Shown here: piece after piece, positions 23,844 to 44,900 of the stretch
Numbering within the stretch: the stretch's first letter is position 1
How the letters are laid out: every line of letters begins with the position of its first letter
Virus record (IMG/VR): IMGVR_UViG_3300011443_000005
Strand: one strand, 5' to 3'
Length of the DNA: 49,419 nucleotides
DNA from: a virus
Notes under the pieces: model-generated
What the model saw: only the letters and a program-made list of their open reading frames with translations
What the model was told of the DNA's origin: nothing
The model's database searches: none
Made by a program: the position numbers and the translations under genes

Positions 23844-24035
23844 TTGATCTACTGGTGTTGCTTCTGCGGACTACAGGCAAAGCAGGTTTTAATAAAAGTT
23901 TTTTAATGGGGGTGAGGCATTACACAACCAACTGCACTTCGCTCTAGGGGCCTGACACCTGGTTGATCTGGTGCTACGCACAGTGACATTGATATGGCAC
24001 ACGCTAGACCATGCTAAGCTGGTTGAATCTGGTGC
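23844..24035. repeat. Iteron-like direct repeats in the divergent control region
   Basis: CTGGTTGATCTGGTGC (23959..23974) and CTGGTTGAATCTGGTGC (24019..24035) differ by one inserted A. A looser copy, TTGATCTACTGGTG, is at 23844..23857. An AT-rich run lies at 23879..23906. Confidence 0.6.
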
Positions 24036-24196
24036 CATAAGGTTGGCACAGAGAAAGTAAGAGCGTATAACCTACCCCCCTTCCCCTACTCCTCCTTCGG
24101 CAACCATCCAGCCTTGGCCAACACTAGCAACCCCGTTAAGCTAACCCGCTATCAGTAAGAGACTTATAGCAATGTAAAAGAATCTCTAAAGGACAC

Positions 24197-24226
24197 TTGA
24201 CAAGCTGGACGATGAGACACTACTCT
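24197..24226 (+). promoter_or_regulatory. Candidate rightward early promoter
   Basis: cTTGACAAg -35 box (same extended box as at 32382 and 32199) with a weak -10 (TACTCT, 18-nt spacer), about 60 nt upstream of the first plus gene. Confidence 0.3.
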
Positions 24227-24274
24227 AGTACTAGATAAGTAGCTTGGTGGCTACTGCTAGACAGGTAAGAAGTA

Positions 24275-24284
24275 GGGAGTAACA
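24275..24284 (+). promoter_or_regulatory. Start-associated motif GGGAGTAACA (copy 1)
   Basis: 3 nt upstream of TTG 24288. Confidence 0.6.
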
Positions 24285-24287
24285 GCC

Positions 24288-24509
24288 TTGGAATCATCCG
24301 CAGCTAAAACAAAACACGCGTATGCAATTGCAATAAGTCTCTCGTCTCTAATTTCTGACAACTGCTATCCCGAACATCTTTTGGACCCAAAAGGTAAAGC
24401 TCTTTGCAAACCAACAATGCAGCTTGCTCATCGGTTCCGAAGAGAGGCTCAAACCCTCACGAGAACCGACAAAAGGCTTTGCAAACAGTGTCTTCGCAGA
24501 GCGGTGTAA
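24288..24509 (+). CDS. Small basic protein (73 aa) with C...CxxC
   Basis: First ORF of the plus arm, with the motif-linked TTG start. Confidence 0.5.
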   Translation: MESSAAKTKHAYAIAISLSSLISDNCYPEHLLDPKGKALCKPTMQLAHRFRREAQTLTRTDKRLCKQCLRRAV

Positions 24510-24527
24510 TTGCACAACACGAATATA

Positions 24528-24537
24528 AGGAGTAACA
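24528..24537 (+). promoter_or_regulatory. Start-associated motif AGGAGTAACA (copy 2)
   Basis: 4 nt (agca) before ATG 24542. Confidence 0.6.
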
Positions 24538-24541
24538 AGCA

Positions 24542-24973
24542 ATGGCGTTTATGAAACCGGAAATTTACAAAGGTGGATACTTGGTTATCGATGGACCAAT
24601 GGGTACGGAATATCTACCCCACGAGATTGCAGACATCGATAACAAAACTCTAGAGGCTTGGAATAACCAAGAAGGAAACGAGCATAACTTACCCGGTTGC
24701 ATTCGAGGCTACGTAGAGAATCACTCCGCATATTCCATCGAACGGGAAGCCGGGATTCTCTCCCGTCTCTCCGCTTCCGGCTACATGGATTCCACACCTT
24801 GGGAACCGGGGGATTCCAACGACCTATGCAAAGCTTGGGATATTTGCCCTGAGTGTTTTGAACAATGCTGGGAATCCGAAACTTCCGATCGGTGTCCCGG
24901 TTGCAATGTGTCCTACCCACAAGACTACGATGGTTGCCGCAAGGCGGGTTGCAGCAATTGCAATGGGGAGTAA
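24542..24973 (+). CDS. Cys-rich protein (143 aa)
   Basis: The C-terminal 50 aa carry CPEC, CPGC and CSNC pairs (multi-zinc-ribbon-like). Confidence 0.65.
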   Translation: MAFMKPEIYKGGYLVIDGPMGTEYLPHEIADIDNKTLEAWNNQEGNEHNLPGCIRGYVENHSAYSIEREAGILSRLSASGYMDSTPWEPGDSNDLCKAWDICPECFEQCWESETSDRCPGCNVSYPQDYDGCRKAGCSNCNGE

Positions 24974-24975
24974 CA
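24966..24975 (+). promoter_or_regulatory. Start-associated motif GGGAGTAACA (copy 3)
   Basis: Its TAA is the stop codon of 24542..24973. 4 nt (aaca) before ATG 24980. Confidence 0.65.
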
Positions 24976-24979
24976 AACA

Positions 24980-25243
24980 ATGGAACGCATCGAAAACACT
25001 ATCCATAGCAAAGCTACAAGTCTTGGCTATCCGATCATCCGGGGAAACCCTAAAAAAATCGATGGAGTTTTGTGCACTCGATTCAAGAACAAGGAAGGAC
25101 AGGCAATCTACGTAGGCCAAGATTTTGATTACGCCAGACCCAACGGCGGAAAGATCGTAGACACTTGGCTACTCTATCTTGAATGTCCTACATGCTTTTG
25201 TACGTACAAACTTAATACCGAACATACTTGCAACAGGGAGTAA
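24980..25243 (+). CDS. Small Cys/His-containing protein (87 aa)
   Basis: ORF with motif-linked start; CPTCFC...H.C near the C-terminus. Confidence 0.6.
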   Translation: MERIENTIHSKATSLGYPIIRGNPKKIDGVLCTRFKNKEGQAIYVGQDFDYARPNGGKIVDTWLLYLECPTCFCTYKLNTEHTCNRE

Positions 25244-25245
25244 CA
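25236..25245 (+). promoter_or_regulatory. Start-associated motif GGGAGTAACA (copy 4)
   Basis: Its TAA is the stop of 24980..25243. 4 nt (agca) before ATG 25250. Confidence 0.65.
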
Positions 25246-25249
25246 AGCA

Positions 25250-25738
25250 ATGCTAAACTATCTCATTGAACATGAAAATAAGACCTACTCCCCCGATGGA
25301 GTAGTAACAACCCATCCCAATTGTACAATCTGCCATAGGGTGAACGATGGTACTAAATATGTTCTGGGTTATCTACCAGCAACGAAAGAAACAATCACTT
25401 GTTGTCTGAATTGCGCAAGCACATTCGAAAGGGAAGAACTAGACAAATCTGAAAAATCTGTCTGGTATATCCTATCTAAGACACCGGATAGCGATCCTCG
25501 AAACGCATACCCGAATACTTATCCTGCTTCTGGACAATGCTGGATAGGTAATGCTATGCGTGTTAGTGGTCGATACAAGTCTCGGAGAATCCATTCCCCC
25601 ATCGGAGGAAGAATTCAGCGCATCAATGTTTGGTTTAGTCACAACGATAAACACTATCATGGTGTAAATTTAGGAGACAATAATATTGTACGATGTAAGA
25701 GAATCAAACACAAAACAACTTATGGAGTAGTAAACTAA
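25250..25738 (+). CDS. Zinc-ribbon protein (162 aa), member of a 3-gene family
   Basis: NCTICHRVNDGTKYVLGY...ITCCLNCASTF resembles the CxTC...GIRVT...CxxC..F pattern of 32416..32631 and 46258..46491. Confidence 0.6.
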   Translation: MLNYLIEHENKTYSPDGVVTTHPNCTICHRVNDGTKYVLGYLPATKETITCCLNCASTFEREELDKSEKSVWYILSKTPDSDPRNAYPNTYPASGQCWIGNAMRVSGRYKSRRIHSPIGGRIQRINVWFSHNDKHYHGVNLGDNNIVRCKRIKHKTTYGVVN

Positions 25739-25828
25739 TGACGTTGCATGGAAACTGACAACAAAAGATGTCAAGACCTAGCGTCATGCATTATGAGTAC
25801 GCTTGGTTATAGATGGATTTAATCAAAA

Positions 25829-25838
25829 GGGAGTAACA
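25829..25838 (+). promoter_or_regulatory. Start-associated motif GGGAGTAACA (copy 5)
   Basis: 4 nt (gaca) before ATG 25843, in a 104-nt intergenic gap. Confidence 0.65.
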
Positions 25839-25842
25839 GACA

Positions 25843-26619
25843 ATGAATCTCGACAAAGTAAAAGACAGAATCCGTAAACTGCTTGCTATCGCCAACGATG
25901 ATAGTTCCGCCGACGGTGAAATATCAGCGGCGATGAAACTAGCAGAGGAAGCCCTAGAGAAGTATCACTTGGATAGAGCAGATGTTGAATCCCACGCAAC
26001 AACTGAGAAACCGCATACCGAAACACACATTGTTGAGAATTGTACGTTTCACGGTAAGCGTATGACTGCTTGGGAATCTCGTCTTTGGGTTGCTGTTAAG
26101 AAGCTAGTTGGTTCAGTCGGTGCTTACTCTGCAAAAAAGATTGTACCCAATGGAACATTCAAGGTACCTGAAAAACGGGAGGTACTTTGCTGGTATGGTC
26201 CAGCAGAGGATGTAGCAATTGCAACATCCCTATTTGCTGAATGGCGACACGTTATTGCAACCCTTGCCATTGCCAAGTTTCGGGGTTTCGCCCGCAATAA
26301 TGGGGCAAGGTATGCGCTTGGCTTTGCCGAGTCTCTGGTTGATAAGGCGGGAGAAGCAGACCAAAACCGACGCAAGCTCATTACCAATGCCACAACGGCT
26401 ATCGTCCATTGTACTTTCGGCAATCTCGGACAAGTCTTAGACCGCAAGCGAGAAGCTGCAACAGAATGGCTACGTAAGGAACAAGGTGTCCGACCAACTA
26501 GAGGATCAATCCGCCGTTGTTCAATCACAAGCAACAATTACGACGCGTATGAGGCAGGTCGAACCGATGGGCGCAATGCCAATTTCTCAGTTACCCAAAG
26601 TAAAAAACTAACCCACTAA
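25843..26619 (+). CDS. DUF2786-like protein (258 aa)
   Basis: The N-terminal KVKDRIRKLLAIANDDSSADGEISAAMKLAEEALEKY matches my recollection of the DUF2786 signature common in phages and plasmids. Confidence 0.5.
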   Translation: MNLDKVKDRIRKLLAIANDDSSADGEISAAMKLAEEALEKYHLDRADVESHATTEKPHTETHIVENCTFHGKRMTAWESRLWVAVKKLVGSVGAYSAKKIVPNGTFKVPEKREVLCWYGPAEDVAIATSLFAEWRHVIATLAIAKFRGFARNNGARYALGFAESLVDKAGEADQNRRKLITNATTAIVHCTFGNLGQVLDRKREAATEWLRKEQGVRPTRGSIRRCSITSNNYDAYEAGRTDGRNANFSVTQSKKLTH

Positions 26620-26640
26620 TAAAGGGAGGAACCACAAACC

Positions 26641-27210
26641 GTGAATACTCAAATAGTCGAAGATTCGACACATGTTCGAAAGATTCGAGAGATTCTACCG
26701 ACCCTAGAATACAAAGCGGTCTTTATACCACAATCTAAATCTCGTAACAAAGATGCTACAATACCAACACTCAATTGGCGGATATGTCTATCAAACCCCC
26801 CAAGAAGAGTTACTACTTTTGAAACAGACTACCAACAGGGGATAGGACACATTCCCAAGTGTCAGCAAACACATTCCCCAAAAGCAAAAACAGTAAACCT
26901 TGCACAATACGAAAGACAAGTAGCCGAGTCTGGCAAGTACTCAGAAAAAATACAAATGAATTCACTTTCTCTCTGGTTACCTCTCCCAAAACCCAACCTA
27001 GTTGATGTACTTTCCTGCTTAGTTCTAGAGTGTGATACATTAAACTATCCGGGCTTTGAAGATTGGGCAATGGAGTTTGGTTACGATTCGGATAGCCGTA
27101 AAACTAAACATCTTTACCAAAAATGTTTGGATGTCGCTCTTCGCTTCAAGTACTTCGTTGGTGGCGAAACAGTTATCAACCAGCTTGAAGAGGCTTTAAG
27201 GAATTGCTAA
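26641..27210 (+). CDS. Hypothetical protein (189 aa)
   Basis: GTG start with AAGGGAGG 12 nt upstream. No motif recognised. Confidence 0.6.
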   Translation: MNTQIVEDSTHVRKIREILPTLEYKAVFIPQSKSRNKDATIPTLNWRICLSNPPRRVTTFETDYQQGIGHIPKCQQTHSPKAKTVNLAQYERQVAESGKYSEKIQMNSLSLWLPLPKPNLVDVLSCLVLECDTLNYPGFEDWAMEFGYDSDSRKTKHLYQKCLDVALRFKYFVGGETVINQLEEALRNC

Positions 27211-27211
27211 T

Positions 27212-27514
27212 ATGGCATACATACACTTTGACAGTAAGTTTGTACCTTATGGCTTTGTCATTGCTAGAGAGCGAATACACTGGCGAAACTCACCAACAGA
27301 TTGTCTTATCCAATCTGATTGGGATTTCGCAGGGGTTGCGTCAACCATTGGTTGGATACCCTGCAAATGTGGTTCTTCCGATGGAACGATAAATTGTAAA
27401 GCCTGCAATCGTACCATTAGCGATATGCTATCAGAGGCATACAACTATATCCGAGCAAGAAACGGAAAACGCTACAAGTCACTAGACAGTTATCTAGGGG
27501 GACAAAATGGTTAA
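27212..27514 (+). CDS. Hypothetical protein (100 aa), CKC...CKAC
   Basis: ATG lies 1 nt after the upstream TAA. Confidence 0.55.
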   Translation: MAYIHFDSKFVPYGFVIARERIHWRNSPTDCLIQSDWDFAGVASTIGWIPCKCGSSDGTINCKACNRTISDMLSEAYNYIRARNGKRYKSLDSYLGGQNG

Positions 27515-27800
27515 GAAGAAAAAGAAGAAACACAAACCGCCAAAGTCAAAGCTACCCTTGACGTGGAAGAATTATAACGGTCTTCAGGAGTTGGACCGTC
27601 TGACACGACAAAAGAACGCCAAGCTTGCACCGTTAGGGTGCTCCGCTGATTTCGTACAATGGTACTATGATTTGTCTCGGACGGAACAAGGCACCTGGGC
27701 AAAATCAATTGGTTGGGTGGAGCTAGCTACCTACTCTATCTCAACTAAATGGCTTATAGATACCGCGTACCCTTGTGTGCAGAAAGTAGCAGGAAATTAA
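27507..27800 (+). CDS. Hypothetical protein (97 aa) with poly-Lys N-terminus
   Basis: 8-nt overlap with the upstream gene; starts MVKKKKKKHKPPKSK. Confidence 0.55.
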   Translation: MVKKKKKKHKPPKSKLPLTWKNYNGLQELDRLTRQKNAKLAPLGCSADFVQWYYDLSRTEQGTWAKSIGWVELATYSISTKWLIDTAYPCVQKVAGN

Positions 27801-27801
27801 C

Positions 27802-28164
27802 TTGGCATTGGTAAACCCAACACTCTGCCTAATCGAAGGGTGCGAACGTAGAGCGGTATGCCGCAAGGTATGTTTCTACCACTACCATTTATATCGTAAC
27901 AGTGGTAGACTACAAGAGTTACCCAAAACCGGAAGAGTAAAGATACGGTTTCATACAGTCCAACTGGATAAGTTACTCATTCAAAGGGCTTATAAGTTAG
28001 ACCTCTCCCCAACAGTATTAAAATATTCCATCCTGTTTGCGGGTATGGAGAAAACCGATAAGCGATTGTTGAAGCTGGTTGAACACTTCAACAAAATGTA
28101 CCATAGTGAGACTCATGCAGCGGTTGCGTTAGCCGCTGCAATTGAAGCCTCAAAAAGGGAGTAA
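27802..28164 (+). CDS. Zinc-finger protein (120 aa)
   Basis: C..GC.R....RK.C..HY..YR.SG motif at the N-terminus, a Cys/His DNA-binding-type motif seen in phage proteins. TTG start. Confidence 0.5.
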   Translation: MALVNPTLCLIEGCERRAVCRKVCFYHYHLYRNSGRLQELPKTGRVKIRFHTVQLDKLLIQRAYKLDLSPTVLKYSILFAGMEKTDKRLLKLVEHFNKMYHSETHAAVALAAAIEASKRE

Positions 28165-28166
28165 TA
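28157..28166 (+). promoter_or_regulatory. Start-associated motif GGGAGTAATA (copy 6, one mismatch)
   Basis: Its TAA is the stop of 27802..28164. 4 nt (gaca) before ATG 28171. Confidence 0.6.
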
Positions 28167-28170
28167 GACA

Positions 28171-28485
28171 ATGACACAACAATGGAAAATTAGCAAGACA
28201 GCTACAAAGGTTTATACCGATGAATTTGGGTGGACAAGGGTTATTTATCATAACGCTTGCGTTGTAAAGTTTAATCAAGATAAGATTATCCTGTCAATGG
28301 GTGGCTGGAATACCAACACTACCCGGACAAGAATGAATCAAGCGAGTAACCAATACGGATTAGGCTTTGGCGTACACCAAAAGAAAGGTACCCCATACGT
28401 ATGTATTGGTAGTGTGGACACAGAACTGAAAACGTCCAAGCCAAATATCATTGACCGCAAAACAGGGAAAGTGAGCACACAATGA
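28171..28485 (+). CDS. Hypothetical protein (104 aa)
   Basis: Motif-linked start. The GGWNTNTTRTRMNQ block looks like a conserved small phage protein family that I cannot name. Confidence 0.6.
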   Translation: MTQQWKISKTATKVYTDEFGWTRVIYHNACVVKFNQDKIILSMGGWNTNTTRTRMNQASNQYGLGFGVHQKKGTPYVCIGSVDTELKTSKPNIIDRKTGKVSTQ

Positions 28486-28700
28486 AACTCAAAATCGAAA
28501 TCGAGATGGAGAATGAAGCCTTTTTTCACAACGGAGAACCTACGAGAGAAAGTGAGGTGTCCAAGATTCTACACCAGTTTATACATAACAAAACCGATGA
28601 GGATTTTGACCTGGTCGGAAACACTTGGATATTGTTTGATTCCAACGGTAACCGAGTAGGTTACGCCAAAGTAATGAACGAAAGGATATCCAATGTCTAA
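28482..28700 (+). CDS. Hypothetical protein (72 aa)
   Basis: ATGA start/stop overlap with the upstream gene. Confidence 0.55.
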   Translation: MKLKIEIEMENEAFFHNGEPTRESEVSKILHQFIHNKTDEDFDLVGNTWILFDSNGNRVGYAKVMNERISNV

Positions 28701-28896
28701 AATTCTGCCTTTTACACACGTTGGAACGTATGAACCCAACGTCTGGCAACAGCAACAAATACAATTACTTGCTGAAGCCGCTAACAGACTCGGCCTAAAA
28801 TACACTCCTGAAACTTGTATGGATCAACTAATCCGACTTGGTTGGTCATTGTGGGGCGCTGACAACTTATCAAATGTGGAGATAACACAAGCATGA
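28693..28896 (+). CDS. Hypothetical protein (67 aa)
   Basis: 8-nt overlap upstream and an ATGA overlap downstream. Confidence 0.55.
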   Translation: MSKILPFTHVGTYEPNVWQQQQIQLLAEAANRLGLKYTPETCMDQLIRLGWSLWGADNLSNVEITQA

Positions 28897-29201
28897 AAGA
28901 CAAATCTTTTTCTATCGCTCTCCCGGAGAAAATGAGGATAGCGATTCTTGTCAGTTGTCCAGAAGAAATACAACAAGCGTTACGACACATTGTTATCCCT
29001 GGACCAGCAACCATTAAAGTACTCGTTACACCCGAAGAAAAGAAAGAAGAATCACTGATCAATGATTTGAATCAGGACTACACATTAGCCAAGAAGTGGA
29101 AGAGACGAGCAATCCAACACTCCGGGGTTCTGTGGCGGGAATACTTCGCTGAAGACCCAGAGCTAAACGACATACCTCGTGGGTACCCAGAAGTGGGCTA
29201 A
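28893..29201 (+). CDS. Hypothetical protein (102 aa)
   Basis: ATGA overlap with the upstream gene. Confidence 0.55.
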   Translation: MKDKSFSIALPEKMRIAILVSCPEEIQQALRHIVIPGPATIKVLVTPEEKKEESLINDLNQDYTLAKKWKRRAIQHSGVLWREYFAEDPELNDIPRGYPEVG

Positions 29202-29251
29202 ACCGCGAGCCGGATACCCTAGAATCGACGATCTTGGATTTTGTGACTACT

Positions 29252-29308
29252 TTCAGGGGTGGGGGGTTTCATCGCAGCTTAAGCGATGCCAGACCCCTTG
29301 CCCCTGAA
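29252..29308 (+). other. Long imperfect RNA hairpin (about 25 bp) between genes
   Basis: ttcagggg...cccctgaa outer stem, catcgc/gcgatg apical stem, middle section closed by G-U pairs that work only on the plus transcript. No U-tract follows. Confidence 0.5.
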
Positions 29309-29328
29309 ATACAGCAGGAATTTAGAAT

Positions 29329-29772
29329 ATGACACACACTGGAAAAGCCACCACGTTTATTCGATTCATTTACCCCAACGACGCGGAAGCGTTCAACGTT
29401 TGGGCTTGCGTCCAAGCTATTCGTCTAGCCCAGGTTTATAACCTCACTGTCCCGGATATTTTTCGGATGAACCAGTCAGCAAGATCACTTGCACACCTAG
29501 CCGCTAAACGAGAGTGGACAAGATTGCTGTTAGAAAATGTGAAGTACAAGCCGGAAAAGGGATTCATCCGAATTTGGGTAAGAGAGAAACCGATGGATAA
29601 ACCCCCAATGGGTTACAGAACTCTGGCTAGCAGACTACTGGAAAGATTTTCAGGTATGAGGATACGGGAAAAGAACCTTAAAGACACAAGAAAAATAGAT
29701 TGGCTAGCCGTAGCTAGACAAGCCAATGAAACAGATAAATTTTATGAGAAGCTTATCGGTCGAGAATCTTAA
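29329..29772 (+). CDS. Hypothetical protein (147 aa)
   Basis: ORF after the hairpin. Its stop overlaps the stop of the convergent gene 29769..30119 by 4 nt. Confidence 0.55.
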   Translation: MTHTGKATTFIRFIYPNDAEAFNVWACVQAIRLAQVYNLTVPDIFRMNQSARSLAHLAAKREWTRLLLENVKYKPEKGFIRIWVREKPMDKPPMGYRTLASRLLERFSGMRIREKNLKDTRKIDWLAVARQANETDKFYEKLIGRES

Positions 29773-30119
29773 GCTATCGGAATACCGGTTACCGTAAGCT
29801 TACCTGTTGTACAATCAGCAACACAATGGATGGAAAGAGTCTTAACAGCAAGTAGCCCTTCTCTGGAAACGTCAATCGTTTGATTGGCAGGCACAATAGT
29901 ATCAAAACTGGTTAGACTAGCTACAGCAGAAGGATTAACCTTAACCAGAACATTGCCAGCCGAATAATTGCTGACAAAACAAGGACTAACAGCCGTGAGA
30001 ATACCAGCAGAAGTACCCTCACTACGAAAGTCATACTCAACTACCGTACCAGCACCATGATTGCCACTGACCAAACGTGCAGGAAACGAAGATTTCATAA
30101 CCAGATGTCGCATACCCAC
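29769..30119 (-). CDS. Cassette gene 4: small beta-rich protein (116 aa)
   Basis: Last gene of the minus-strand cassette. Ser/Thr/Val-rich. Confidence 0.55.
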   Translation of the reverse strand: MGMRHLVMKSSFPARLVSGNHGAGTVVEYDFRSEGTSAGILTAVSPCFVSNYSAGNVLVKVNPSAVASLTSFDTIVPANQTIDVSREGLLAVKTLSIHCVADCTTGKLTVTGIPIA

Positions 30120-30136
30120 TCCCTTTCAACAAAACC

Positions 30137-30691
30137 TTAAACCTCGACCTCGAAATAAGCATACCACTTAATGACAACACGCTCATTCGTTGCCCAAGCA
30201 GAGGTAACGGTAGAGGTTTTTGTATAGCTGGTCAACGTCGTGGTAATGTCCTGAGAAATTTCGGAAATCAGAGTCTCCGTACCATCCACCGCACGATGAT
30301 ACATCCGGCCAATGATACGACGAATGGTTTCAAGATCACTCGCAGAATAATAAGCACCGAATTGCCAAGTAGCTGTTATCCCTGTGCAAACAACTTCATC
30401 CATTGCTCCCGCATTGGTAGCAAATTCCTCGATAAGACTTTCACAGGTAAGTACGGGGGTACAACTGGCAGTGTATTCAACATCATCATCATGCAATCCG
30501 CCAGTTTGAAGTATCCGATAACCGGAAATGTCAGATACATCATTACTCATCTGCAAAGTTTTGGTTGGTCCCGCAGCACTGCCAACAGTCATAGCACCAA
30601 TGTGTATAAGGGTTGGTCTAGACCGGGCATCGGACGGCAGGGTAACAATCGTGTCTGGAGCAGCTTCTATGTGTAGGTGTCCAGTTGCCAT
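30137..30691 (-). CDS. Cassette gene 3: hypothetical protein (184 aa)
   Basis: Starts 1 nt after the upstream stop. Thr/Ser-rich and beta-like. No motif recognised. Confidence 0.6.
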   Translation of the reverse strand: MATGHLHIEAAPDTIVTLPSDARSRPTLIHIGAMTVGSAAGPTKTLQMSNDVSDISGYRILQTGGLHDDDVEYTASCTPVLTCESLIEEFATNAGAMDEVVCTGITATWQFGAYYSASDLETIRRIIGRMYHRAVDGTETLISEISQDITTTLTSYTKTSTVTSAWATNERVVIKWYAYFEVEV

Positions 30692-31603
30692 TTACACGTC
30701 CATCACTTCATAAGCAACATGAAAGTCACCCGTTCTGGATGCAGTACCCACGGTAGCAGTAAGTTTCTTGTTTGTTGGTCCTACCCACTTACCCATCAAA
30801 GCACCACCACCACCAGGAGATTCGATTGAAGAAAAGATTGGATCAGAAGCAGTGTCAAATTGCAGAGTAAGTCTTGTGGTTCCCGCATTGCTACCAGCAG
30901 CCTTAATCATATAGCTACGTACTACAATCGCTTTGTTGGCTCCTGGAGCAGCTATTTGATCTACTGGTGTTGTTGTGGTTATTGTATCGTGTACGTACAG
31001 GGGATTTGCTGGGTTGGGATCAACCAATTGTTTGCCGTGTCTGTCAAAGACCGCATCCGTTCTATCCCCGGTAGCTACAGCGGTTGGTGCTGTTGCTGTT
31101 GCTACTGTTTTTCCACCAATCTTTATTGGGTTACCTGAATCCACCCCATCATGGGCCACATCACCCTGTACGGATACCGTAGCAGCAATGGATACGGGTT
31201 GTGTTGTTGCTCCCGTTGGGTCCGTTCGCACTTGACCATTCAAACCCAACCAAGCATCTACACGATCACCGTTAGCAACAGCAGTAGGTGTACCTGAAGA
31301 GGCTTTCCCACCAATTTTAATAGGACTACCTGTATCCGGTGCATCGTGTGCGGTGTCCCCTGTTACAGGTACAGGAGTAGTAAAAGTTACTGGTTGGGAG
31401 GTTGTACCTGTTGGGTCTGTCTTTAAGGCACCGTTAAGATTAAACCAAGCGTTAACTCTATCGCCGTTGCTTACCGCTGTTGGTGTACCTGATGCAGCTT
31501 TACCACCTATTTTGAGTGGGTTACCTGTATCCACATCATCATGCGGAACATTGCCCTGTATCATAGGCATGGAGTAACCCAAAGCTAGAGTATAACCCAA
31601 CAC
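30692..31603 (-). CDS. Cassette gene 2: repeat-containing fibre-like protein (303 aa)
   Basis: Contains 2.7 tandem 65-aa repeats (HD..D.GNPIKIGGK..SGTPTAV.NGDRV.AW..LNG...TDPTG.T.QPV). The fibre/receptor-binding call is inference. Confidence 0.65.
   Translation of the reverse strand: MLGYTLALGYSMPMIQGNVPHDDVDTGNPLKIGGKAASGTPTAVSNGDRVNAWFNLNGALKTDPTGTTSQPVTFTTPVPVTGDTAHDAPDTGSPIKIGGKASSGTPTAVANGDRVDAWLGLNGQVRTDPTGATTQPVSIAATVSVQGDVAHDGVDSGNPIKIGGKTVATATAPTAVATGDRTDAVFDRHGKQLVDPNPANPLYVHDTITTTTPVDQIAAPGANKAIVVRSYMIKAAGSNAGTTRLTLQFDTASDPIFSSIESPGGGGALMGKWVGPTNKKLTATVGTASRTGDFHVAYEVMDV
31010..31543 (-). repeat. Tandem 195-nt (65-codon) coding repeats, 2.7 copies
   Basis: Repeat units are residues 21-85, 86-150 and 151-198 of the 303-aa protein. 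The similarity is also visible at DNA level. Confidence 0.8.
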
Positions 31604-32004
31604 TATTTATACTCCACACCAAAGGCAGTAAAGGTTAGATCAGCTAGGTTCGCGGTGAAGACAACCAGTTCATGTCTAGGATACAAACTCAAACCGCTAA
31701 TAAACATTGGGTTACCTGGGTCTACCGGTTGATCAAACAAAAAGACTTGAGCACTAGCTTGATCTCCTGAGTCATTAGCTATTGTTCCCATTTTGAAGGT
31801 TCTTCTTACGGAACCAATGTTGCAGACCAGGATTAAACCTATTTCGATGGTTTGGTTTACTTGAGCAAGAATGAAGGAATACCAGTTTGCAGTAGGAACA
31901 CGAAGAGCAGTCGCATTAGCGGAAGAAAGAGCACCGACAGTGCCAGACTGCCCTACCGAACTTGATCCCGGAATTCCACCACCACCAGCCATGCAGGAAT
32001 TCAA
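31603..32004 (-). CDS. Cassette gene 1: hypothetical protein (133 aa; 129 aa if ATG 31992)
   Basis: First ORF downstream of the leftward promoter at 32170..32199. No clear SD for either the TTG 32004 or ATG 31992 start. Confidence 0.5.
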   Translation of the reverse strand: MNSCMAGGGGIPGSSSVGQSGTVGALSSANATALRVPTANWYSFILAQVNQTIEIGLILVCNIGSVRRTFKMGTIANDSGDQASAQVFLFDQPVDPGNPMFISGLSLYPRHELVVFTANLADLTFTAFGVEYK

Positions 32005-32061
32005 ACAGGTTTTGGTTGGGAGTCAAGTTTAGGCGTAGGGGTTGGCTCCTCCCCGCCTCTT

Positions 32062-32080
32062 GGTTTCCCGCAGGGAAACC
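32062..32080 (-). other. 8-bp hairpin in the cassette leader (ggtttccc gca gggaaacc)
   Basis: Perfect inverted repeat within the leader of about 160 nt predicted for the cassette. Confidence 0.45.
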
Positions 32081-32169
32081 TCTTATAGATATAACAACAA
32101 AAACCCCACCCTCGTAAAACACGCAGGTGGAGAAAAAATCACCCATACACCCGATGATGTACGAGGGGG

Positions 32170-32199
32170 GTTATAGGGGGGAGGAAAGAATTTTGTCAA
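32170..32199 (-). promoter_or_regulatory. Sigma70-type promoter facing the cassette
   Basis: Minus strand reads cTTGACAaa - 18 nt - TATAAC (-35 at 32199..32194, -10 at 32175..32170). Confidence 0.5.
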
Positions 32200-32210
32200 G
32201 AGGAAGTACT

Positions 32211-32228
32211 TTGTGAATCTTTTCACAA
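32211..32228. promoter_or_regulatory. Operator 1: perfect palindrome TTGTGA-atcttt-TCACAA (CRP-family consensus core TGTGA-N6-TCACA)
   Basis: Read directly. Its centre is about 23 bp upstream of the centre of the leftward -35 box. Confidence 0.7.
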
Positions 32229-32321
32229 TCTTTCCTGCTGGATGACCCCGAAAACCACGATTAGTAGGGAAAAGATCGAGAAAAAGCCTCTCGTCTTCCG
32301 GCGATGAATACCAGCAAAAGA

Positions 32322-32339
32322 TTGTGAAAATTGTCACAA
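32322..32339. promoter_or_regulatory. Operator 2: perfect palindrome TTGTGA-aaattg-TCACAA
   Basis: Read directly. Its half-sites are identical to operator 1. It lies 111 bp from operator 1 and about 54 bp upstream of the rightward -35 box. Confidence 0.7.
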
Positions 32340-32381
32340 AGCCCAGAGGGTAAAATAATCTAAAAAAATCTAAAAGAGTTG

Positions 32382-32409
32382 TTGACAAGATTAAGAAGCT
32401 TGGCAGAAT
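32382..32409 (+). promoter_or_regulatory. Sigma70-type promoter for the resumed plus arm (possibly leaderless)
   Basis: gTTGACAag - 16 nt - CAGAAT. ATG 32416 begins only 7 nt after the -10 and has no SD. Confidence 0.4.
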
Positions 32410-32415
32410 ACCAGC

Positions 32416-32631
32416 ATGTTAGCACAAGCAGTCAATGTGCAGTACCGATGTGACACCTGTAAGCAAATTACAGATACTTGGATAGGTATCCGAGTAACGG
32501 GTGATCTTTTTCATCGGATTTGTGCAGATTGCTTTTTCAAAGAGGAAAACGATGGCAGCGAAGAAAGCAAAGGGCAAAAGCCCAAAGCAGCCGGGATCAA
32601 CGAACGGGTTCAAACTGGTAAACAAGGATGA
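32416..32631 (+). CDS. Small zinc-ribbon protein (71 aa), family member
   Basis: YRCDTCKQITDTWIGIRVT...ICADCF matches YTCITCGKNKETMLGIRVT...CSMECSEAF of 46258..46491. Confidence 0.55.
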   Translation: MLAQAVNVQYRCDTCKQITDTWIGIRVTGDLFHRICADCFFKEENDGSEESKGQKPKAAGINERVQTGKQG

Positions 32632-32869
32632 GGTATCCTTTACCCAGCGGTCTCGCGGGGGTAGATGGAAGCCCTTGATCCAAGCCGCAATTGAAAACCC
32701 GGAGCAGGCTATCCTCATCCCATTGGAGGGAGATGAAGAAGAGCAGAAGGCGTCATACAAAAACTTTTCGCAGGGCATTTACCACCAGGCAAAAGCACTT
32801 AACGTATCTGTGTCGGTTGGACGAACCGATGACGGCGAGACTATGGTCGTCTGTCTGCGAAATGAATAG
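32552..32869 (+). CDS. Hypothetical basic protein (105 aa from ATG 32552)
   Basis: AGAGGA SD before ATG 32552 (MAAKKAKGKSPKQ...). The track ORF starts earlier at 32501. It overlaps the previous gene by 80 nt. Confidence 0.5.
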   Translation: MAAKKAKGKSPKQPGSTNGFKLVNKDEVSFTQRSRGGRWKPLIQAAIENPEQAILIPLEGDEEEQKASYKNFSQGIYHQAKALNVSVSVGRTDDGETMVVCLRNE

Positions 32870-32883
32870 GTTTAGTAGCTTAC

Positions 32884-32955
32884 GACTGCTTACACCCTTA
32901 CCTCCTCACGGGGATTCAGGTTTTTGCGATGGCTTGAGTCCGGGTGTAAGCAGTC
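32884..32955 (+). other. 72-nt structured RNA element (14-bp outer stem plus 9-bp inner stem)
   Basis: gactgcttacaccc / gggtgtaagcagtc are perfect. The inner ggattcagg / cttgagtcc stem needs two G-U pairs, which are possible only on the plus transcript. Confidence 0.5.
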
Positions 32956-33081
32956 TCTAAAATGGTGGACCTCCGCAACCGTTGCGGTAACGGGCTAACT
33001 GTCAATCACGGGGCAGGATGTCAAAGTTTAACTCACACACCCTCCACAGACTAGTGTGACACGAACGGAGAGCGGTTGCCG

Positions 33082-33300
33082 ATGGTCACCAAAGAAGAGC
33101 GAAAACAAGTTTGGGTAGTCGGTCAACTTCATTATTGGGACAAACTGAAGAGCACCCCGCAAATTAACGTGATAGATGATTGCGGGTCCATTGGCTATTT
33201 ACCCGTATTCGAAACCCGCGAACAAGCTGAGTTGGTTTCCCGTGATAATTTGATTTATGGAATGCACACATGCCCAAGACCAGTACAAGAAAACCAATAA
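33082..33300 (+). CDS. Hypothetical protein (72 aa from ATG 33082)
   Basis: GGAGAG lies 9 nt upstream of the ATG. The track start is a TTG two codons earlier. Confidence 0.5.
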   Translation: MVTKEERKQVWVVGQLHYWDKLKSTPQINVIDDCGSIGYLPVFETREQAELVSRDNLIYGMHTCPRPVQENQ

Positions 33301-34100
33301 GTCTACCTGTTGTGGGCGACTATCCAGTAGCAGGTAAAGACTATACTTTGGCACTGCCTAAAGGGTATCTCTCGGTAAGCCAGATTGAGAAGTACCTGAA
33401 CTGTCCAGAAGCATATCGACGAGCGTATGTCGTGGGAGAAAAACAGGAAACAAATAGCAATCTTTGGTATGGCTCAATGACCGCTTTAGCTTTAGCCCAC
33501 CTACATAGGGGCAAATACACACCTGTTAAGATTGCAAAGGAAATCAAAGCCCACAAGAAAGAATGTGACAATTGGGAGTCCAGACATAGTGTGGAGGGTT
33601 GTATTGGTTTTGTTCTGGACTGCATGGAGGCATATCAAAAAGACGGAGTAGCCAAACCGAGAAAGAACGGTAAGCAAGATGGAGTTGAGGAAGAGTTTGT
33701 AATAGAAGTTGCTGGAGTAAAAGTCAAAGGCGTCATTGACTTGGTAGAGAAGCAGAGAGTAACAGATTTCAAGACTACAGGCAATGCTTCTGGTTATCTA
33801 CCTGAGTCCAGCATACAACTAGCCATATACGCCCTAGCTACTGGGGTTTCCAATGTCGGATTCAAAAGTTTTGTGCGGAACTACAGCGGAGAGTATACAA
33901 AGATGGTAAAAGACTACACCATGCTAGATTTGAAAAAGGTACGAGTTTGGTTGGAAAGAACCGTGGCAGAAGTAGCAAGAGGAATCTCCTTGGGTGTCTT
34001 CCCCCTCACCAACCCAATGCGAAACAAGTTATGTTGCGACACCTATTGCAGCTTTCATCCAACGTGTGCAGTTAACTGGAAAAGGAAAATCAAATGCTAG
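33270..34100 (+). CDS. Cas4/RecB-family PD-(D/E)XK exonuclease with Fe-S cysteines
   Basis: GVIDLVEK...VTDFKTTG (D..E.K / DxK core), QLAIY (QxxxY), one N-terminal Cys (YLNCPEAY) plus C-terminal CCDTYCSFHPTC. Confidence 0.75.
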   Translation: MPKTSTRKPISLPVVGDYPVAGKDYTLALPKGYLSVSQIEKYLNCPEAYRRAYVVGEKQETNSNLWYGSMTALALAHLHRGKYTPVKIAKEIKAHKKECDNWESRHSVEGCIGFVLDCMEAYQKDGVAKPRKNGKQDGVEEEFVIEVAGVKVKGVIDLVEKQRVTDFKTTGNASGYLPESSIQLAIYALATGVSNVGFKSFVRNYSGEYTKMVKDYTMLDLKKVRVWLERTVAEVARGISLGVFPLTNPMRNKLCCDTYCSFHPTCAVNWKRKIKC

Positions 34101-34387
34101 AAATGTTAATAGCGGAACATAGTATCGCTTGGTATCTCACGCAACCAGACGGTGCAAGAGTGGTGATTCTAGAATTACCGACAAGACCAAAAAATCGTAC
34201 TGATGTTTCCGCCAAACTACCCCAACAGTTTTTTGATGACATCCACAGAGCAATGACAAGGACGTTAGGCTATGCTGAAGAACTCAAAGCAATCAAAGAC
34301 GCTATCGCAGACTGCGAAGACACAACTTCCATCGACCTTGGAAAAGGCTACACTTGTACCTGCAAGTGTCATAAACCTATCGGGTAA
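34094..34387 (+). CDS. Hypothetical protein (97 aa)
   Basis: 7-nt overlap with the nuclease stop. C-terminal CTCKCH. Confidence 0.5.
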   Translation: MLEMLIAEHSIAWYLTQPDGARVVILELPTRPKNRTDVSAKLPQQFFDDIHRAMTRTLGYAEELKAIKDAIADCEDTTSIDLGKGYTCTCKCHKPIG

Positions 34388-36512
34388 ACCCACAATCCTT
34401 TGCTTCGGTGAGACTCCAGGAATAGAGGATGTCCAGGAGGGACAAGCATTCGCTGGACGAGCAGGGAAGCTGCTTCGGAAACTCATCACCCTGCACCTGC
34501 CCCATTGCCGTGTTGTCCTCGACAACGTGTGTCCCGAAGTCCTGGCCGGGGGACATGGCAAACCCAACGCGGATATTCTCAAGAAGTACAAAGCCTACAG
34601 AGAAGAATCCGTAACCACTTGGCAACCCTCTGTGATTGTCCTGGTTGGGGCTTACGCGATGAACACAGCGGGTCTGCGGGGTACTGCTGGAATTGTTCGC
34701 CGAAATGCAACCACCGTACTTTACCACGGCAGACCGGCGGTGCTTTCTGTTCATCCAGCCTATGTGCTCCGCAATCCAGCGGAAATCAAACTACTTCGTA
34801 GAGTTTTTGAAATCGTGGAGGCGGAATTAAGAGGCGGAAAGGAAGTCCAAGCTCCCCGATCACGCAATGGGCTGACCTTGAATATTTCAGCAAGTTTAGA
34901 CCTGGAAACAGAAGGACTGAACCCAAGGGGGGGACGAATACTTACTGCTGCAATGAGTAGTAAGAAGCAAACAACTTGGATAGCTGCACCAACACTAGAT
35001 ACTATACAACTTTCTCCTAAACCCGTTATCTTCCACAACGGCAAGTTTGATATGGCTTGGTTGCAGACACACGGTTTTCAATTGCCCGCAAGTGTGGAAG
35101 ATACCCTTATCATAGCTTGGCTAATTGACGAGAATGATAAGAAAGACCTAGGTACACTTGCACAACGATACTTAGGTGTTCCCGCGTGGTGGCTGGACAT
35201 CGATCTGAAACACACAACTGAATTACCTACAGAAGTATTAGGTAAGTATAATGCTCTTGATGCACACTATACTTACCAACTGCGGAATAAACTTTGGCCG
35301 GAACTTACCAAACAACAACAACAGCTTTGTACTGACGTTCTCTTCCCCATGACAAAGCTTTTGGCAGAGATGGAATGCCGGGGGTTCAAAGTTGACGGCA
35401 CAGTATTTGAGAAAATTTGTACTAACAACCAGAAGTTAATAAAGCAGCAGGAAAAGAAACTCCGATCCAAGTACGGAGAAGAAATTAACTTTCGTTCAAC
35501 TACCGATTTGAAAGAGTTGGTCTATGGCAAACTCGATTATAAAGTGGGTGGACTAACCAAGGCCAAACAACCCGCTGTTGACGCTGACACATTGAGAAAG
35601 ATTTCTCCCAAACTCGCGGACTTGGCCGATTACCGTTGGCAATTGTGGTTTGAGTCCAATGTAGCTAAAGGTTGGGCGAAGCGAATTACCTCTCAAGGTT
35701 TTTTGCACACGAATTACAACTTTGGTCATGTTGTTACGGGTCGGTTAAGTTCGTCCAATCCGAACATGCAAAATGTGGATCGGGATGGGGTTCAACGTCT
35801 TTGCCTTGTTTCTCGGTTTCCTCGTGGGAAGATTATTCAATACGATTACAAAGCCCACGAGTACCGGATTAAGGCTGCCGAAGCAGGAGAGACAAAGCTT
35901 CTTAAACAACTATCCGATTCGTCCTTTGACCCACACGAGGAAACACGAACGTTGCTCCGTACCAAGTATGAGATTGTTGTAGATAGGCCGAGAGCAAAAA
36001 ATGTGAACTTCTCCGTAATCTACGGAATTAGCCCTCACGGTTTGTTCGGAAAGTATGAAATACCAATTAAAGATGGGCAGTTAATTATACCTGCTTGGTA
36101 TAAACTCTACCCAAGAATCAAGGCACACAATGATTTAATTCTGAAAAACTATGAAGAGAAACGAGAGGTTGAGTCGATATTTGGTTGGAAGAGAAGATTC
36201 AAACCTGTTGAGTTGGTAGATTTGGGAAGTCGCAAGTTTGATGCACACCAGCGGAATCAAGCATTGAACTTTGGAACACAGAACGCAGCAGTAGTGATCT
36301 GCTACATGGGAATGTTAGCACTTGATCGCTGGCTGACAAGACACCGAATGAAGAGTATCATTATCCACCAGATACACGACTCTGTTGTGGTAGACGCACA
36401 CCCGAAAGAAGTAAAGGCCCTGGAAAGAGAAGTTCCAGAAGTGTTGACAAATCTGAAACTACCAATGAGGATTCCTTTAGCTGTGGAGGCTAAAGTCGGG
36501 GACACCCTGTAG
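34272..36512 (+). CDS. polA: Family-A DNA polymerase with 3'-5' exonuclease and an N-terminal UDG-like (family 4/5-type) domain
   Basis: UDG motifs GETPGIED..G.AFAGRAGKLL and SVHPAYVLR. Exo motifs LDLETEGL, HNGKFD, YNALDAHY. Pol motifs DYKAHEYR, RAKNVNFSVIYG, IHQIHDSVVVD. The true start may be downstream of 34272 (116-nt overlap with the previous ORF). Confidence 0.9.
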   Translation: MLKNSKQSKTLSQTAKTQLPSTLEKATLVPASVINLSGKPTILCFGETPGIEDVQEGQAFAGRAGKLLRKLITLHLPHCRVVLDNVCPEVLAGGHGKPNADILKKYKAYREESVTTWQPSVIVLVGAYAMNTAGLRGTAGIVRRNATTVLYHGRPAVLSVHPAYVLRNPAEIKLLRRVFEIVEAELRGGKEVQAPRSRNGLTLNISASLDLETEGLNPRGGRILTAAMSSKKQTTWIAAPTLDTIQLSPKPVIFHNGKFDMAWLQTHGFQLPASVEDTLIIAWLIDENDKKDLGTLAQRYLGVPAWWLDIDLKHTTELPTEVLGKYNALDAHYTYQLRNKLWPELTKQQQQLCTDVLFPMTKLLAEMECRGFKVDGTVFEKICTNNQKLIKQQEKKLRSKYGEEINFRSTTDLKELVYGKLDYKVGGLTKAKQPAVDADTLRKISPKLADLADYRWQLWFESNVAKGWAKRITSQGFLHTNYNFGHVVTGRLSSSNPNMQNVDRDGVQRLCLVSRFPRGKIIQYDYKAHEYRIKAAEAGETKLLKQLSDSSFDPHEETRTLLRTKYEIVVDRPRAKNVNFSVIYGISPHGLFGKYEIPIKDGQLIIPAWYKLYPRIKAHNDLILKNYEEKREVESIFGWKRRFKPVELVDLGSRKFDAHQRNQALNFGTQNAAVVICYMGMLALDRWLTRHRMKSIIIHQIHDSVVVDAHPKEVKALEREVPEVLTNLKLPMRIPLAVEAKVGDTL

Positions 36513-36634
36513 GAGAAAATGATGAACGCGATACTGTTTTATGAGTTGGCGAGGCACTTGGCAAAGGTTTCACACGATTTTATCAACGCCGTGTTGGAGG
36601 AGTAGCAGTCTAGATAGAGTTTGTCTGAACTAGA

Positions 36635-36644
36635 AGGAGTAACA
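36635..36644 (+). promoter_or_regulatory. Start-associated motif AGGAGTAACA (copy 7)
   Basis: 3 nt (gca) before ATG 36648. Confidence 0.6.
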
Positions 36645-36647
36645 GCA

Positions 36648-36899
36648 ATGGAAAGTGTACGAGTCGAATTGTCAATCAAACCGGTTGGAGGATTCCTGGG
36701 GGTAACCCTTTCCGCAGCGGTGGAGACTACCCTTGGGGCGAAGGAGACACACGCCCAAGCCTTGAAACGTGCAGAGAAAACCGCTCTTGACTATCTCGAA
36801 AAGACAAAGAGCATGGACAACTTACAAGACTTGACGATAAAAGCTGCCCATAGCTTGAAGCGTGTGGCTGAAGAAGAGGGCTTAGTCCGTGGTCGATAG
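36648..36899 (+). CDS. Hypothetical protein (83 aa from ATG 36648)
   Basis: Motif-linked ATG. The track ORF starts at TTG 36621. Confidence 0.55.
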   Translation: MESVRVELSIKPVGGFLGVTLSAAVETTLGAKETHAQALKRAEKTALDYLEKTKSMDNLQDLTIKAAHSLKRVAEEEGLVRGR

Positions 36900-36922
36900 T
36901 CGATAACAGAAAGGTAAAACAA

Positions 36923-37264
36923 ATGCGTTGTTCCAAAATTCAATGCTTATCGTGTAAAAAAGAGATGGGTTTTGGTGGTGATCCTGTATTGTGTGAAACG
37001 TGTATAGCTATTCGACGACTTCACCCCGAAGAACAAGTGAACACAATGGGTACAAGTCCAGAGCCAGAAGCACAAAAGGCATATTCTGGTAAGTTAGAAG
37101 TACCTATGACAACTGCGGAGTGTAGGCTACGACGATTAAAAGAACACTGTATTGCTGAGATAGATACTCTCTTGCCGTCACAGGCATACGAGGAAAGAGA
37201 TGCGGCATTCTCGACTGTGCGTTCGATGATTTTGTTTATCAAGGCAGGTATAACCCGTAACTAA
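36923..37264 (+). CDS. Zinc-ribbon protein (113 aa)
   Basis: CLSC...CETC at the N-terminus. Confidence 0.55.
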   Translation: MRCSKIQCLSCKKEMGFGGDPVLCETCIAIRRLHPEEQVNTMGTSPEPEAQKAYSGKLEVPMTTAECRLRRLKEHCIAEIDTLLPSQAYEERDAAFSTVRSMILFIKAGITRN

Positions 37265-37275
37265 GGAGTCAGGCA

Positions 37276-37992: not shown

Positions 37993-38046
37993 AGAGTCTT
38001 ACCGGCTGAGTGTCCGTTTTGAATTCTCTAGAAAGGATAACAAAGT

Positions 38047-39464: not shown

Positions 39465-39477
39465 GGAAAAGCTACAA

Positions 39478-41909: not shown

Positions 41910-41923
41910 CAAGGGAGAAGAGT

Positions 41924-43433: not shown

Positions 43434-43447
43434 AAAAGGAATAGGGA

Positions 43448-44272: not shown

Positions 44273-44307
44273 TAGTTTGTCGTCAAGTACGAGCGACACC
44301 TTGCTCT

Positions 44308-44892: not shown

Positions 44893-44900
44893 GTGCGTAA

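Follow-up and report, generated by a model that had tools for sequence, protein, structure and literature searches.

A minus-strand gene cassette between two plus-strand operons

We analysed a viral DNA of 49,419 nucleotides (nt) (IMG/VR record IMGVR_UViG_3300011443_000005; hereafter the window, meaning the whole stretch) and focused on four adjacent minus-strand open reading frames (ORFs) of 133, 303, 184 and 116 amino acids (aa), which we call g133, g303, g184 and g116 and, together, the cassette (Table 1). The first 123 bases of the window are the same as its last 123, and assemblies from other samples, of 49,326 and 49,437 base pairs (bp), are 100% identical to it over the stretches read, one of them opening elsewhere on the circle; this makes the window a complete circular assembly of ~49.3 kb. 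It is a podovirus-like phage without a close cultured relative, and its genes form four transcription blocks: late genes (minus strand), small early genes (24542..29772, plus strand), the cassette (minus strand) and replication genes (32416..46827, plus strand). An initial annotation, made from the sequence alone, had placed the cassette 26 kb from the main virion operon. This separation is misleading because the genome is circular and the minus-strand virion arm begins at ~23421, only ~6 kb past the 3' end of the cassette.

Twenty other genes of the window served to train a codon model (training mean 0.169 per codon), which gave the four ORFs scores of 0.146–0.234 per codon in the annotated frame (0.146 for g133, 0.234 for g303 and 0.205 for g116) and scores below zero in all five other frames. 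This restriction of the coding signal to the annotated frame marks all four as real genes, and the possibility of chance ORFs was discarded. The ORF listing agrees with public gene callers, which report the same four minus-strand genes on identical contigs. The callers start g133 at ATG 31992 (129 aa) and g116 at ATG 30113 (114 aa), which are the likely starts of both genes, and one public call starts g303 at ATG 31564 (290 aa).

The tight packing described initially is evident at each junction. The g133 stop and g303 start overlap in TAGTG, with GGAG eight nt upstream of the g303 start; the g303 stop directly abuts the g184 start (TAAATG); and a 17-nt spacer follows g184, with AAGGGAG six nt upstream of ATG 30113. 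No Shine-Dalgarno sequence precedes g133. At the far end, the stop-on-stop overlap of g116 with the plus-strand gene 29329..29772 was borne out. The description of the products as beta-rich and rich in Thr, Ser and Gly also holds: these three residues make up 28–31% of the four proteins, against late-arm and early-arm values of 22.5% and 18.5%, and both proteins that we modelled (g303 and g184) are all-beta. No enzyme family matched any of the four, in agreement with the reported lack of an enzymatic motif. Codon and amino-acid usage in all four genes is closer to the late arm than to the early arm, a comparison confounded with strand. The composition of the cassette is not foreign, its G+C content being 0.462 against 0.463–0.478 in the neighbouring arms and its codon scores being those of the phage's own genes.

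Table 1. Coordinates of the cassette, its control elements and other features of the window
Feature	Position	Strand	Description
g133	31603..32004	-	ORF, 133 aa, TTG start
g303	30692..31603	-	ORF, 303 aa, GTG start
Tandem repeats in g303	31000..31560	-	three 195-nt repeats; direct-repeat families, 195-nt spacing, 62–76% identity
g303 C-terminal beta-sandwich (jelly roll)	30695..31006	-	residues ~200–303
g184	30137..30691	-	ORF, 184 aa, ATG start
g116	29769..30119	-	ORF, 116 aa, GTG start
Convergent stop-on-stop overlap	29769..29772		both TAA codons in palindrome CTTAAG; read from sequence
Terminator-like hairpin past g116	29684..29745	-	hairpin and UUUUUC, 30–80 nt past the g116 stop, inside the 3' end of gene 29329..29772
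Divergent control region	32005..32415		between cassette and plus-strand replication operon; without coding signal
Terminator-like element, cassette leader	32093..32172	-	66-nt stem-loop, then UUUUUGUUGUU
Promoter-like site facing cassette	32190..32217	-	TTCACA, 16 nt, CAAAAT; TG before second hexamer; pattern scan
Second promoter candidate facing cassette	32169..32197	-	TTGACA-N17-TATAAC; read from sequence
Operator-like element B	32209..32233	-	AAAGATTGTGAAAAGATTCACAAAG; core TTGTGA-N6-TCACAA; overlaps -35 of minus-strand promoter-like site
Operator-like element A	32317..32341	+	AAAGATTGTGAAAATTGTCACAAAG; overlaps -35 of plus-strand promoter-like site
Promoter-like site facing replication operon	32331..32359	+	TTGTCA, 17 nt, AATAAT; pattern scan
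Second promoter-like site	32382..32409	+	TTGACA-16-CAGAAT; pattern scan
XRE-family helix-turn-helix protein	40460..40750	+	96 aa; inside replication arm; precomputed Pfam
SU10-adaptor-like gene	11938..12834	-	virion arm; E 4.3e-5
Large terminase	18673..20562	-	virion arm
PLxRFG ('tail-700') domain protein	46727..49414	-	895 aa; far virion-arm end, across circular junction

The g303 and g184 families

The g303 protein consists of three tandem ~65-aa repeats (195 nt each) followed by a C-terminal jelly-roll domain, with hmmsearch domains at residues 15–65, 71–137 and 124–302. The repeat motif reads G-D-x-A-H-D-x-x-D-x-G-x-P-x-K-I-G-G-K-A...P-T-A-V...G-D-R-x-D-A. A word-indexed protein search found 222 relatives, none of them named. 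In alignment A1 the repeat core is kept in 1–5 copies per protein ahead of a ~100-aa C-terminal domain, and H150, D151, D154, G156, P158, K160, G162, D179 and R180 are conserved. The family occurs at twenty loci in GTDB genomes, including those of Planctomycetota, Patescibacteria, Gemmatimonadales and Chlorobiaceae. A match of the g303 profile to MazF9 (E 0.003) was judged spurious.

The genes around g303-family members belong mostly to virion blocks. In siphovirus-like contigs they include tail-tip genes. In L001 the family gene is preceded by the tape-measure gene, Dit and a 585-aa gene placed as a tail-associated lysin or tip protein would be; in L007 it follows Sipho_Gp37 and adjoins a SASA esterase; and in L002 and L005 it lies late in the virion blocks. 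A further member (L041, 7500..8495, plus strand) lies between SU10-type portal and capsid genes in a prophage-like block of the Aminobacter anthyllidis LMG 26462 chromosome. As this host is cultured, the locus offers an experimental entry point to the family.

Structure modelling and fold comparison with AlphaFold and Foldseek, proposed in the initial annotation as a check, returned beta-sandwiches for both the g303 C-terminal domain and g184, with weak and generic matches. The AlphaFold2 model of g303 has a predicted local distance difference test score (pLDDT) of 68 overall and of 76–94 over residues 200–302. The best match of the C-terminal domain in the PDB is the trimeric cement protein of Helicobacter phage KHP40 (7dou, E 5.9e-5), with TNF-like lectins, BclA and the carbohydrate-binding module (CBM) CBM16 ranking next. 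The g184 model, built from a 50-sequence alignment, is an 11-strand beta-sandwich (pLDDT 88, predicted template modelling score 0.85) whose matches in the PDB (CBM4, CBM16 and the TNF family) are weak and generic, at E≥1e-3. Its matches in BFVD are domains of large uncultured-phage proteins, several of them with S74 or collagen, with E-values down to 1e-7 and template modelling (TM) scores of ~0.5 (query-normalised).

A word-indexed search with g184 found the protein itself alone, and an exhaustive one yielded 60 relatives at E≤1e-3, mostly standalone proteins of 190–200 aa that carry the motifs SDIxGYRxL, EEFATxAGxMD, YHRTxGGTETL and WxTNERLVxK. The domain also occurs in nine larger proteins, sometimes in two or three copies, and these proteins additionally carry collagen repeats, Peptidase_S74, the T4 gp5 C-terminal domain (Gp5_trimer_C), Laminin_G_3 or SO2946-like_C. 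Collagen repeats, the S74 intramolecular chaperone and the gp5 C-terminal domain are hallmarks of tail fibres and spikes. The four window proteins themselves contain no such stalk or chaperone domain (Collagen, Peptidase_S74 or Gp5_trimer_C).

A conserved gene pair, and a trio in an otherwise unrelated phage

The closest parallel to the cassette is in L014, a 41-kb podovirus-like contig with P22_portal and a late virion operon on one strand. The genes of this operon run in the order portal, 277, 434, 201 and 330 aa, SU10_adaptor, 694, 159, 64, 71, 115, 328 and 189 aa, and on to a 1013-aa protein. The 115-aa product corresponds to g133 (Smith-Waterman score 64, compared with 27.2 ± 4.7 in shuffles and reached by 1 of 5,000), the 328-aa product to g303 (E 1e-16) and the 189-aa product to g184 (E 3e-41). 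The three homologues stand in the same order as in the cassette, flanked on one side by SU10_adaptor with the 694-aa gene and on the other by large internal-protein-like genes. The remaining structural proteins of the window have no match in L014, and the trio is therefore common to otherwise unrelated phages. The initial annotation had allowed that every relative might have the cassette at an identical location; the location in fact varies, since L014 carries the trio within its late operon.

Of nine independent standalone g184-family genes with readable upstream DNA, eight are immediately preceded by a g303-family gene or by the g303 C-terminal domain on its own (the window, L014, L015, L016, L021/L022, L023, L044 and L045), with stop and start codons that overlap or abut; L019, where the g184-family gene has no g303-family gene upstream, is the exception. 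In L045 the gene preceding the g184-like gene encodes 122 aa that correspond to the g303 C-terminal domain alone, and the constant partnership is therefore that of the g303 jelly-roll domain with g184. Beside g303-family genes in the 20 GTDB loci and in L001, L002, L005 and L007, no g184-like or g133-like neighbours were found. We considered a read-through fusion of g303 and g184 and rejected it: the two genes are in the same frame in the window and L014 and in differing frames in L015, L016, L021 and L023, and no fusion protein with both domains was found.

Judged from these homologues, the conserved unit is three of the four cassette genes, g133, g303 and g184. The four-gene unit initially described thus stands in part, as these three recur as a set in L014 and g116 has no counterpart beside the related pairs. 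The g133 protein has a Gly/Ser-rich N-terminus and a beta-rich body, and its C-terminal 40 residues (FDQPVDPGNPMFISG...) weakly resemble one g303 repeat unit (hhalign E 0.011). The two also have in common a 21-nt DNA repeat of 86% identity, and beyond this weak link between g133 and the g303 repeat no convincing signal of paralogy was seen among the four proteins. The g116 protein is a beta-rich orphan that is not kept beside the other three genes elsewhere: the genes downstream of g303/g184 pairs differ from locus to locus and none resembles it. It had no match in phage genomes, family libraries or the neighbour genes of related loci, and was not searched alone in large protein collections. 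In L014, the gene after the trio (10571..11050, plus strand) encodes a 159-aa HExxH protein unrelated to g116, and in L016 a radical-SAM-like ORF (CxxxCxxC; 2648..3415, plus strand) lies directly downstream of the g303-like/g184-like pair.

These contexts and folds bear on whether the products belong on the head or on the tail side of a virion. The cement-protein match of g303 would fit a capsid or neck decoration module (a cement protein, head fibre or collar appendage) that coats or projects from the head and either stabilises it or provides weak surface adhesion. The C-terminal domain of g303, and that domain alone, matches the cement proteins of KHP30 and KHP40 with target-normalised TM-scores of 0.57 (7dn2) and 0.48 (7dou); and in L041 the family gene stands between an SU10-type portal gene, which it directly follows, and the capsid gene. 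However, the resemblance is that of a generic jelly roll, at 14–17% identity over ~100 of the 303 residues, and cement proteins have neither N-terminal repeats nor a g184-like partner. The gene context is usually tail-side, with family members following tape-measure, Dit and tip genes in L001 and Sipho_Gp37 in L007. In L014 the trio follows the adaptor and the 694-aa gene rather than the capsid gene, and no member adjoins a capsid gene in the window, L001, L007 or L014, which leaves L041 as the sole head-side case. The g184 domain, moreover, is fused to features of the tail type (the S74 chaperone, the gp5 C-terminal domain and collagen stalks). We consider a decoration module unlikely.

A divergent control region with twin operator-like elements

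The cassette has its own control region of ~410 nt, as had been proposed. This region is non-coding (its sole ORF, 32083..32388, has a codon score of -0.017) and contains promoter-like sites on both strands. Elements A and B (AAAGATTGTGAAAAnnnTCACAAAG) are inverted copies of one another (repeat I3), identical at 22 of 25 bases and 83 bp apart. The 25-bp element has only these two matches in the genome even when three mismatches are permitted, with 0 expected in 100 shuffles. Both copies hold a perfect TGTGA-N6-TCACA core (32212..32227 and 32323..32338), and these are the only two such cores in the window even with one mismatch. To judge from the hexamers, the cassette and replication promoters appear to be mirror images, each with the 25-bp element centred near -36. 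Because the same element overlaps the -35 of both, the two promoters would share a regulator.

Candidates for the putative binder are the XRE-type protein of the replication arm, a 71-aa zinc-ribbon protein and a host CRP-family factor. The consensus of the CRP/FNR family is TGTGA-N6-TCACA, and CRP activation sites are typically at -41.5 or -61.5. The two elements match this consensus perfectly; unlike CRP sites, their cores are centred near -36 from the predicted starts, and the conserved 25 bp are asymmetric. The zinc-ribbon-like candidate (CxxC...CxxC) is encoded by an ORF at 32416..32631, and the second plus-strand promoter-like site ends 7 nt before its ATG at 32416. This spacing suggests that the first gene of the replication operon has a leaderless mRNA. 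A leaderless g133 mRNA from TTGACT-N17-TGAATT was also considered and rejected, as this -10 hexamer lacks the key A at position 2.

The initial annotation had further described the leader as long and structured. Over its full 191 nt its stability is unremarkable (z-score -1.55), and exceptional stability is confined to one 80-nt hairpin plus U-tract (minimum free energy (MFE) -31 kcal/mol, z-score -3.79, with none of 200 shuffles as stable). This element, which terminator scans also picked up, gave sub-threshold Rfam matches only, to terminator-bearing small RNAs. Counted from the start predicted near 32183, it extends from ~10 to ~90 nt downstream, and ~100 nt separate it from the first start codon. 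The hairpin past g116, which a custom scan for hairpins and U-runs located within the last 90 nt of the converging gene, is weaker (MFE -11.2, z-score -2.31, 4 of 200 shuffles). On the opposite strand, the first terminator-like site beyond 29772 is near 30217; if these terminator predictions hold, the converging transcripts would overlap across all of g116.

A promoter closely followed by a terminator recalls lambdoid late control, in which the promoter PR' is followed by the terminator tR' and Q acts by antitermination. As at PR'-tR', the promoter-like site of the cassette is followed within ~90 nt by a strong hairpin and U-tract, ahead of genes of structural type. Unlike PR', it is overlapped by an operator-like palindrome. 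No Q-like antiterminator was noticed among the window proteins scanned, a scan that included no search aimed at one.

This layout is among the arguments for regarding the cassette as an ordinary late fibre operon, once the first part of the late arm, that was split off by insertion of block 24542..29772 and is still under normal late control. The cassette is oriented like the virion arm, ~6 kb upstream of it, and its codon and amino-acid usage is late-like, with the strand confounding noted above. The intervening block, moreover, has a G+C content of 0.439, compared with 0.478 in the late arm and 0.462 in the cassette (other blocks, 0.462–0.463), and a repeated translation-start motif of its own. 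The difference in G+C is small, however. No repeats or attachment-like sequences flank either the block or the cassette, and the two divergent intergenic regions, 32005..32415 and 23422..24541, have no similarity to each other. Through the twin elements, the cassette promoter is linked to that of the replication operon and not to the late arm. On balance a split-off late operon seems unlikely. The intervening block itself, with its ~12 small plus-strand genes of lower G+C, may have been inserted later.

A predicted virion-surface fibre or adhesin module

We favour, by a little over even chances, the reading of the cassette as a relocated virion-surface fibre or adhesin module. From the homology, synteny and folds described above we infer a location on the virion and the formation of a complex, the core of which would be the conserved pair of the g303 C-terminal domain and g184. 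In this complex g133 would be a small partner, apparently with one degenerate copy of the g303 repeat, and g116 a lineage-specific small gene that may encode an assembly helper or tip protein. The overlapping or abutting start and stop codons make it probable that a single mRNA yields the proteins in coupled amounts and that they assemble jointly. The module would be exchanged among phages and able to sit at different places; in the window it lies between two plus-strand operons, oriented like the virion arm and with a predicted promoter of its own.

The regulatory details we hold with less confidence than the assignment to a virion fibre or adhesin. One DNA-binding protein probably acts on both the cassette and the replication promoters through the 25-bp element, and without read-through or bypass the leader terminator would let few transcripts reach the first gene. 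Such a gate would make the timing or condition dependence of the module separate from that of the other virion genes.

Several observations weigh against a fibre or adhesin module or against parts of its proposed control. For each of the four proteins, searches of Pfam, PHROGs and NCBIfam gave nothing but noise at E≤1, profile searches against PDB sequences gave spurious matches only, and in none of these four resources was there a sequence link to a characterised fibre, receptor-binding or decoration protein. The fold matches of the g303 C-terminal domain and of g184 are generic beta-sandwiches with low TM-scores, and the g303 repeat region was modelled at low confidence (pLDDT 50–75). The L041 gene occupies a head-module position, between portal and capsid genes, and in L045 it is ParB-like and endolysin-like genes that precede the pair. 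Among the contigs that carry the cassette, none came from a moderately diverged relative of the phage. Promoter-like sites, which are consensus matches, are no more numerous in the control region than in shuffles.

The initial annotation had suggested a host-range or receptor-binding module. This was supported in part: the g303 and g184 families occur in virion or tail blocks or fused to fibre hallmarks, and no characterised family was matched. Its other suggestion, a surface-modification or exclusion module, was not supported: PADLOC-DB gave no match at E≤0.1 for the four proteins or four neighbours, and the homologues lie in structural contexts. A non-virion, lectin-like module of this kind would be expressed alongside the replication genes and serve either to shield or alter the surface of the infected cell (superinfection exclusion) or to aid host takeover. 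It would account for the control region held in common with the replication operon, for the location in the early arm, for the weak resemblance of the folds to carbohydrate-binding modules and TNF-like lectins, and for the non-structural neighbourhood of the L045 pair. Beyond the PADLOC result, it is opposed by the L014 trio and most g303-family members lying inside structural operons and by the g184 domain being part of large fibre-type proteins. Nor did we see a signal peptide, lipobox or membrane segment in the four proteins on reading them, without use of a prediction tool. We regard this explanation as very improbable.

A bolder variant of the fibre or adhesin reading makes the cassette a conditionally expressed, alternative host-recognition module, in which the shared regulator, possibly of the host CRP family, reads the state of the cell and the leader terminator is a second gate. 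Particles would then carry or lack the fibre complex according to cell state, giving phenotypic heterogeneity in host range. We think this quite improbable.

Comparison with known systems

Tail-fibre operons with a small downstream helper gene are familiar from lambda stf-tfa, T4 gp37-gp38 and Mu S-U. Like these, the cassette is a short, coupled run of beta-rich, Ser/Thr/Gly-rich, non-enzymatic genes with a small, fast-evolving gene after the main one, and it appears as a module exchanged between otherwise unrelated phages. It differs from them in lying outside the virion arm, in having its own control region and in matching none of them by sequence or by a specific fold. For the location there is a precedent in phage T5, where the gene oad (pb5) adjoins the exclusion gene llp at a distance from the other tail genes, and host recognition is thus specified away from the main tail block. 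The product, pb5, is the T5 receptor-binding protein (PMC9586334). There is no homology between the two systems; pb5 is a single monomeric protein, and the cassette has no accompanying lipoprotein exclusion gene.

The g303 C-terminal domain and g184 have the general beta-sandwich topology of TNF/C1q-like heads (the BclA C-terminal domain, the BC2L-C N-terminal lectin and Photorhabdus PLTL) and of CBM4 and CBM16, and in some proteins the g184 domain follows collagen repeats, as the heads of BclA and C1q do. The likeness to TNF, C1q and CBM domains stops at E-values of 1e-3 or worse and TM-scores of 0.2–0.4 (query-normalised), without sequence similarity, in a comparison of overall folds. Morons are independently transcribed accessory genes in phage genomes. 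The cassette is like them, at the level of sequence patterns, in being flanked by two promoter-like sites on one side and a terminator-like hairpin on the other, and unlike them in having the G+C content and codon usage of the surrounding genome.

Because all sequence-based membership tests failed and the fold matches are generic, the cassette cannot be placed in any described family. It is not the undescribed system initially suspected, in that the gene module recurs in other uncultured phages, and its biology is most likely ordinary virion-surface protein assembly. The g303 and g184 families and their strict pairing are nevertheless undescribed, and the placement with a duplicated operator is unusual. 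Both are sizeable, g303 with >220 members and g184 with ~60 cluster representatives, and neither has a Pfam, PHROG or NCBIfam entry or a solved structure. They are obligate gene neighbours that move jointly between unrelated uncultured phages. Their pairing provides an annotation handle for hundreds of 'hypothetical' genes and singles out two proteins for co-folding or co-expression studies. Should the module prove to be a receptor-binding fibre, it would be a compact natural case of separately controlled host-recognition genes, which bears on host-range engineering.

The phage and its other genes

The lack of annotation is not special to the cassette, as the whole phage is 'dark matter'. All other contigs that carry the cassette are 99.99–100% identical to the window. 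The four proteins had no tblastn match in 50,697 phage genomes, and blastn and tblastn against GenBank phages found no relative for the cassette region, the four proteins or the portal. The best cultured-phage match of the DNA polymerase has 24% identity. Scans of viral contigs with g303, the neighbouring exonuclease, P0122 and alignment A3 recovered no relatives, and a metagenome scan returned three short loci only.

The minus-strand virion arm includes the large terminase and the SU10-adaptor-like gene listed in Table 1, and the 895-aa PLxRFG protein at its far end weakly matches a 3431-position PHROG profile. The plus-strand arm encodes a PD-(D/E)XK nuclease, gp32-like, DnaB-like helicase and primase-like proteins, and a family-A DNA polymerase (34272..36512, plus strand) with a uracil-DNA-glycosylase-superfamily domain fused at its N-terminus. 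Early plus-strand genes have a common translation-start motif, GGGAGTAACAnnCAATG, at 24274, 24529, 24967, 25237, 25830, 28158 and 36639 (repeat families D4, D7 and D12), concentrated in the 24.2–28.2 kb block. Between the virion arm and the first early block lie 1.1 kb (23422..24541) without convincing genes, to which no Rfam family matched. This non-coding stretch contains one copy (23844..23860) of a perfect 17-nt direct repeat, TTGATCTACTGGTGTTG, the other copy of which lies inside g303 (30956..30972); with ~0.1 such pairs expected by chance on our estimate, the repeat is probably a coincidence.

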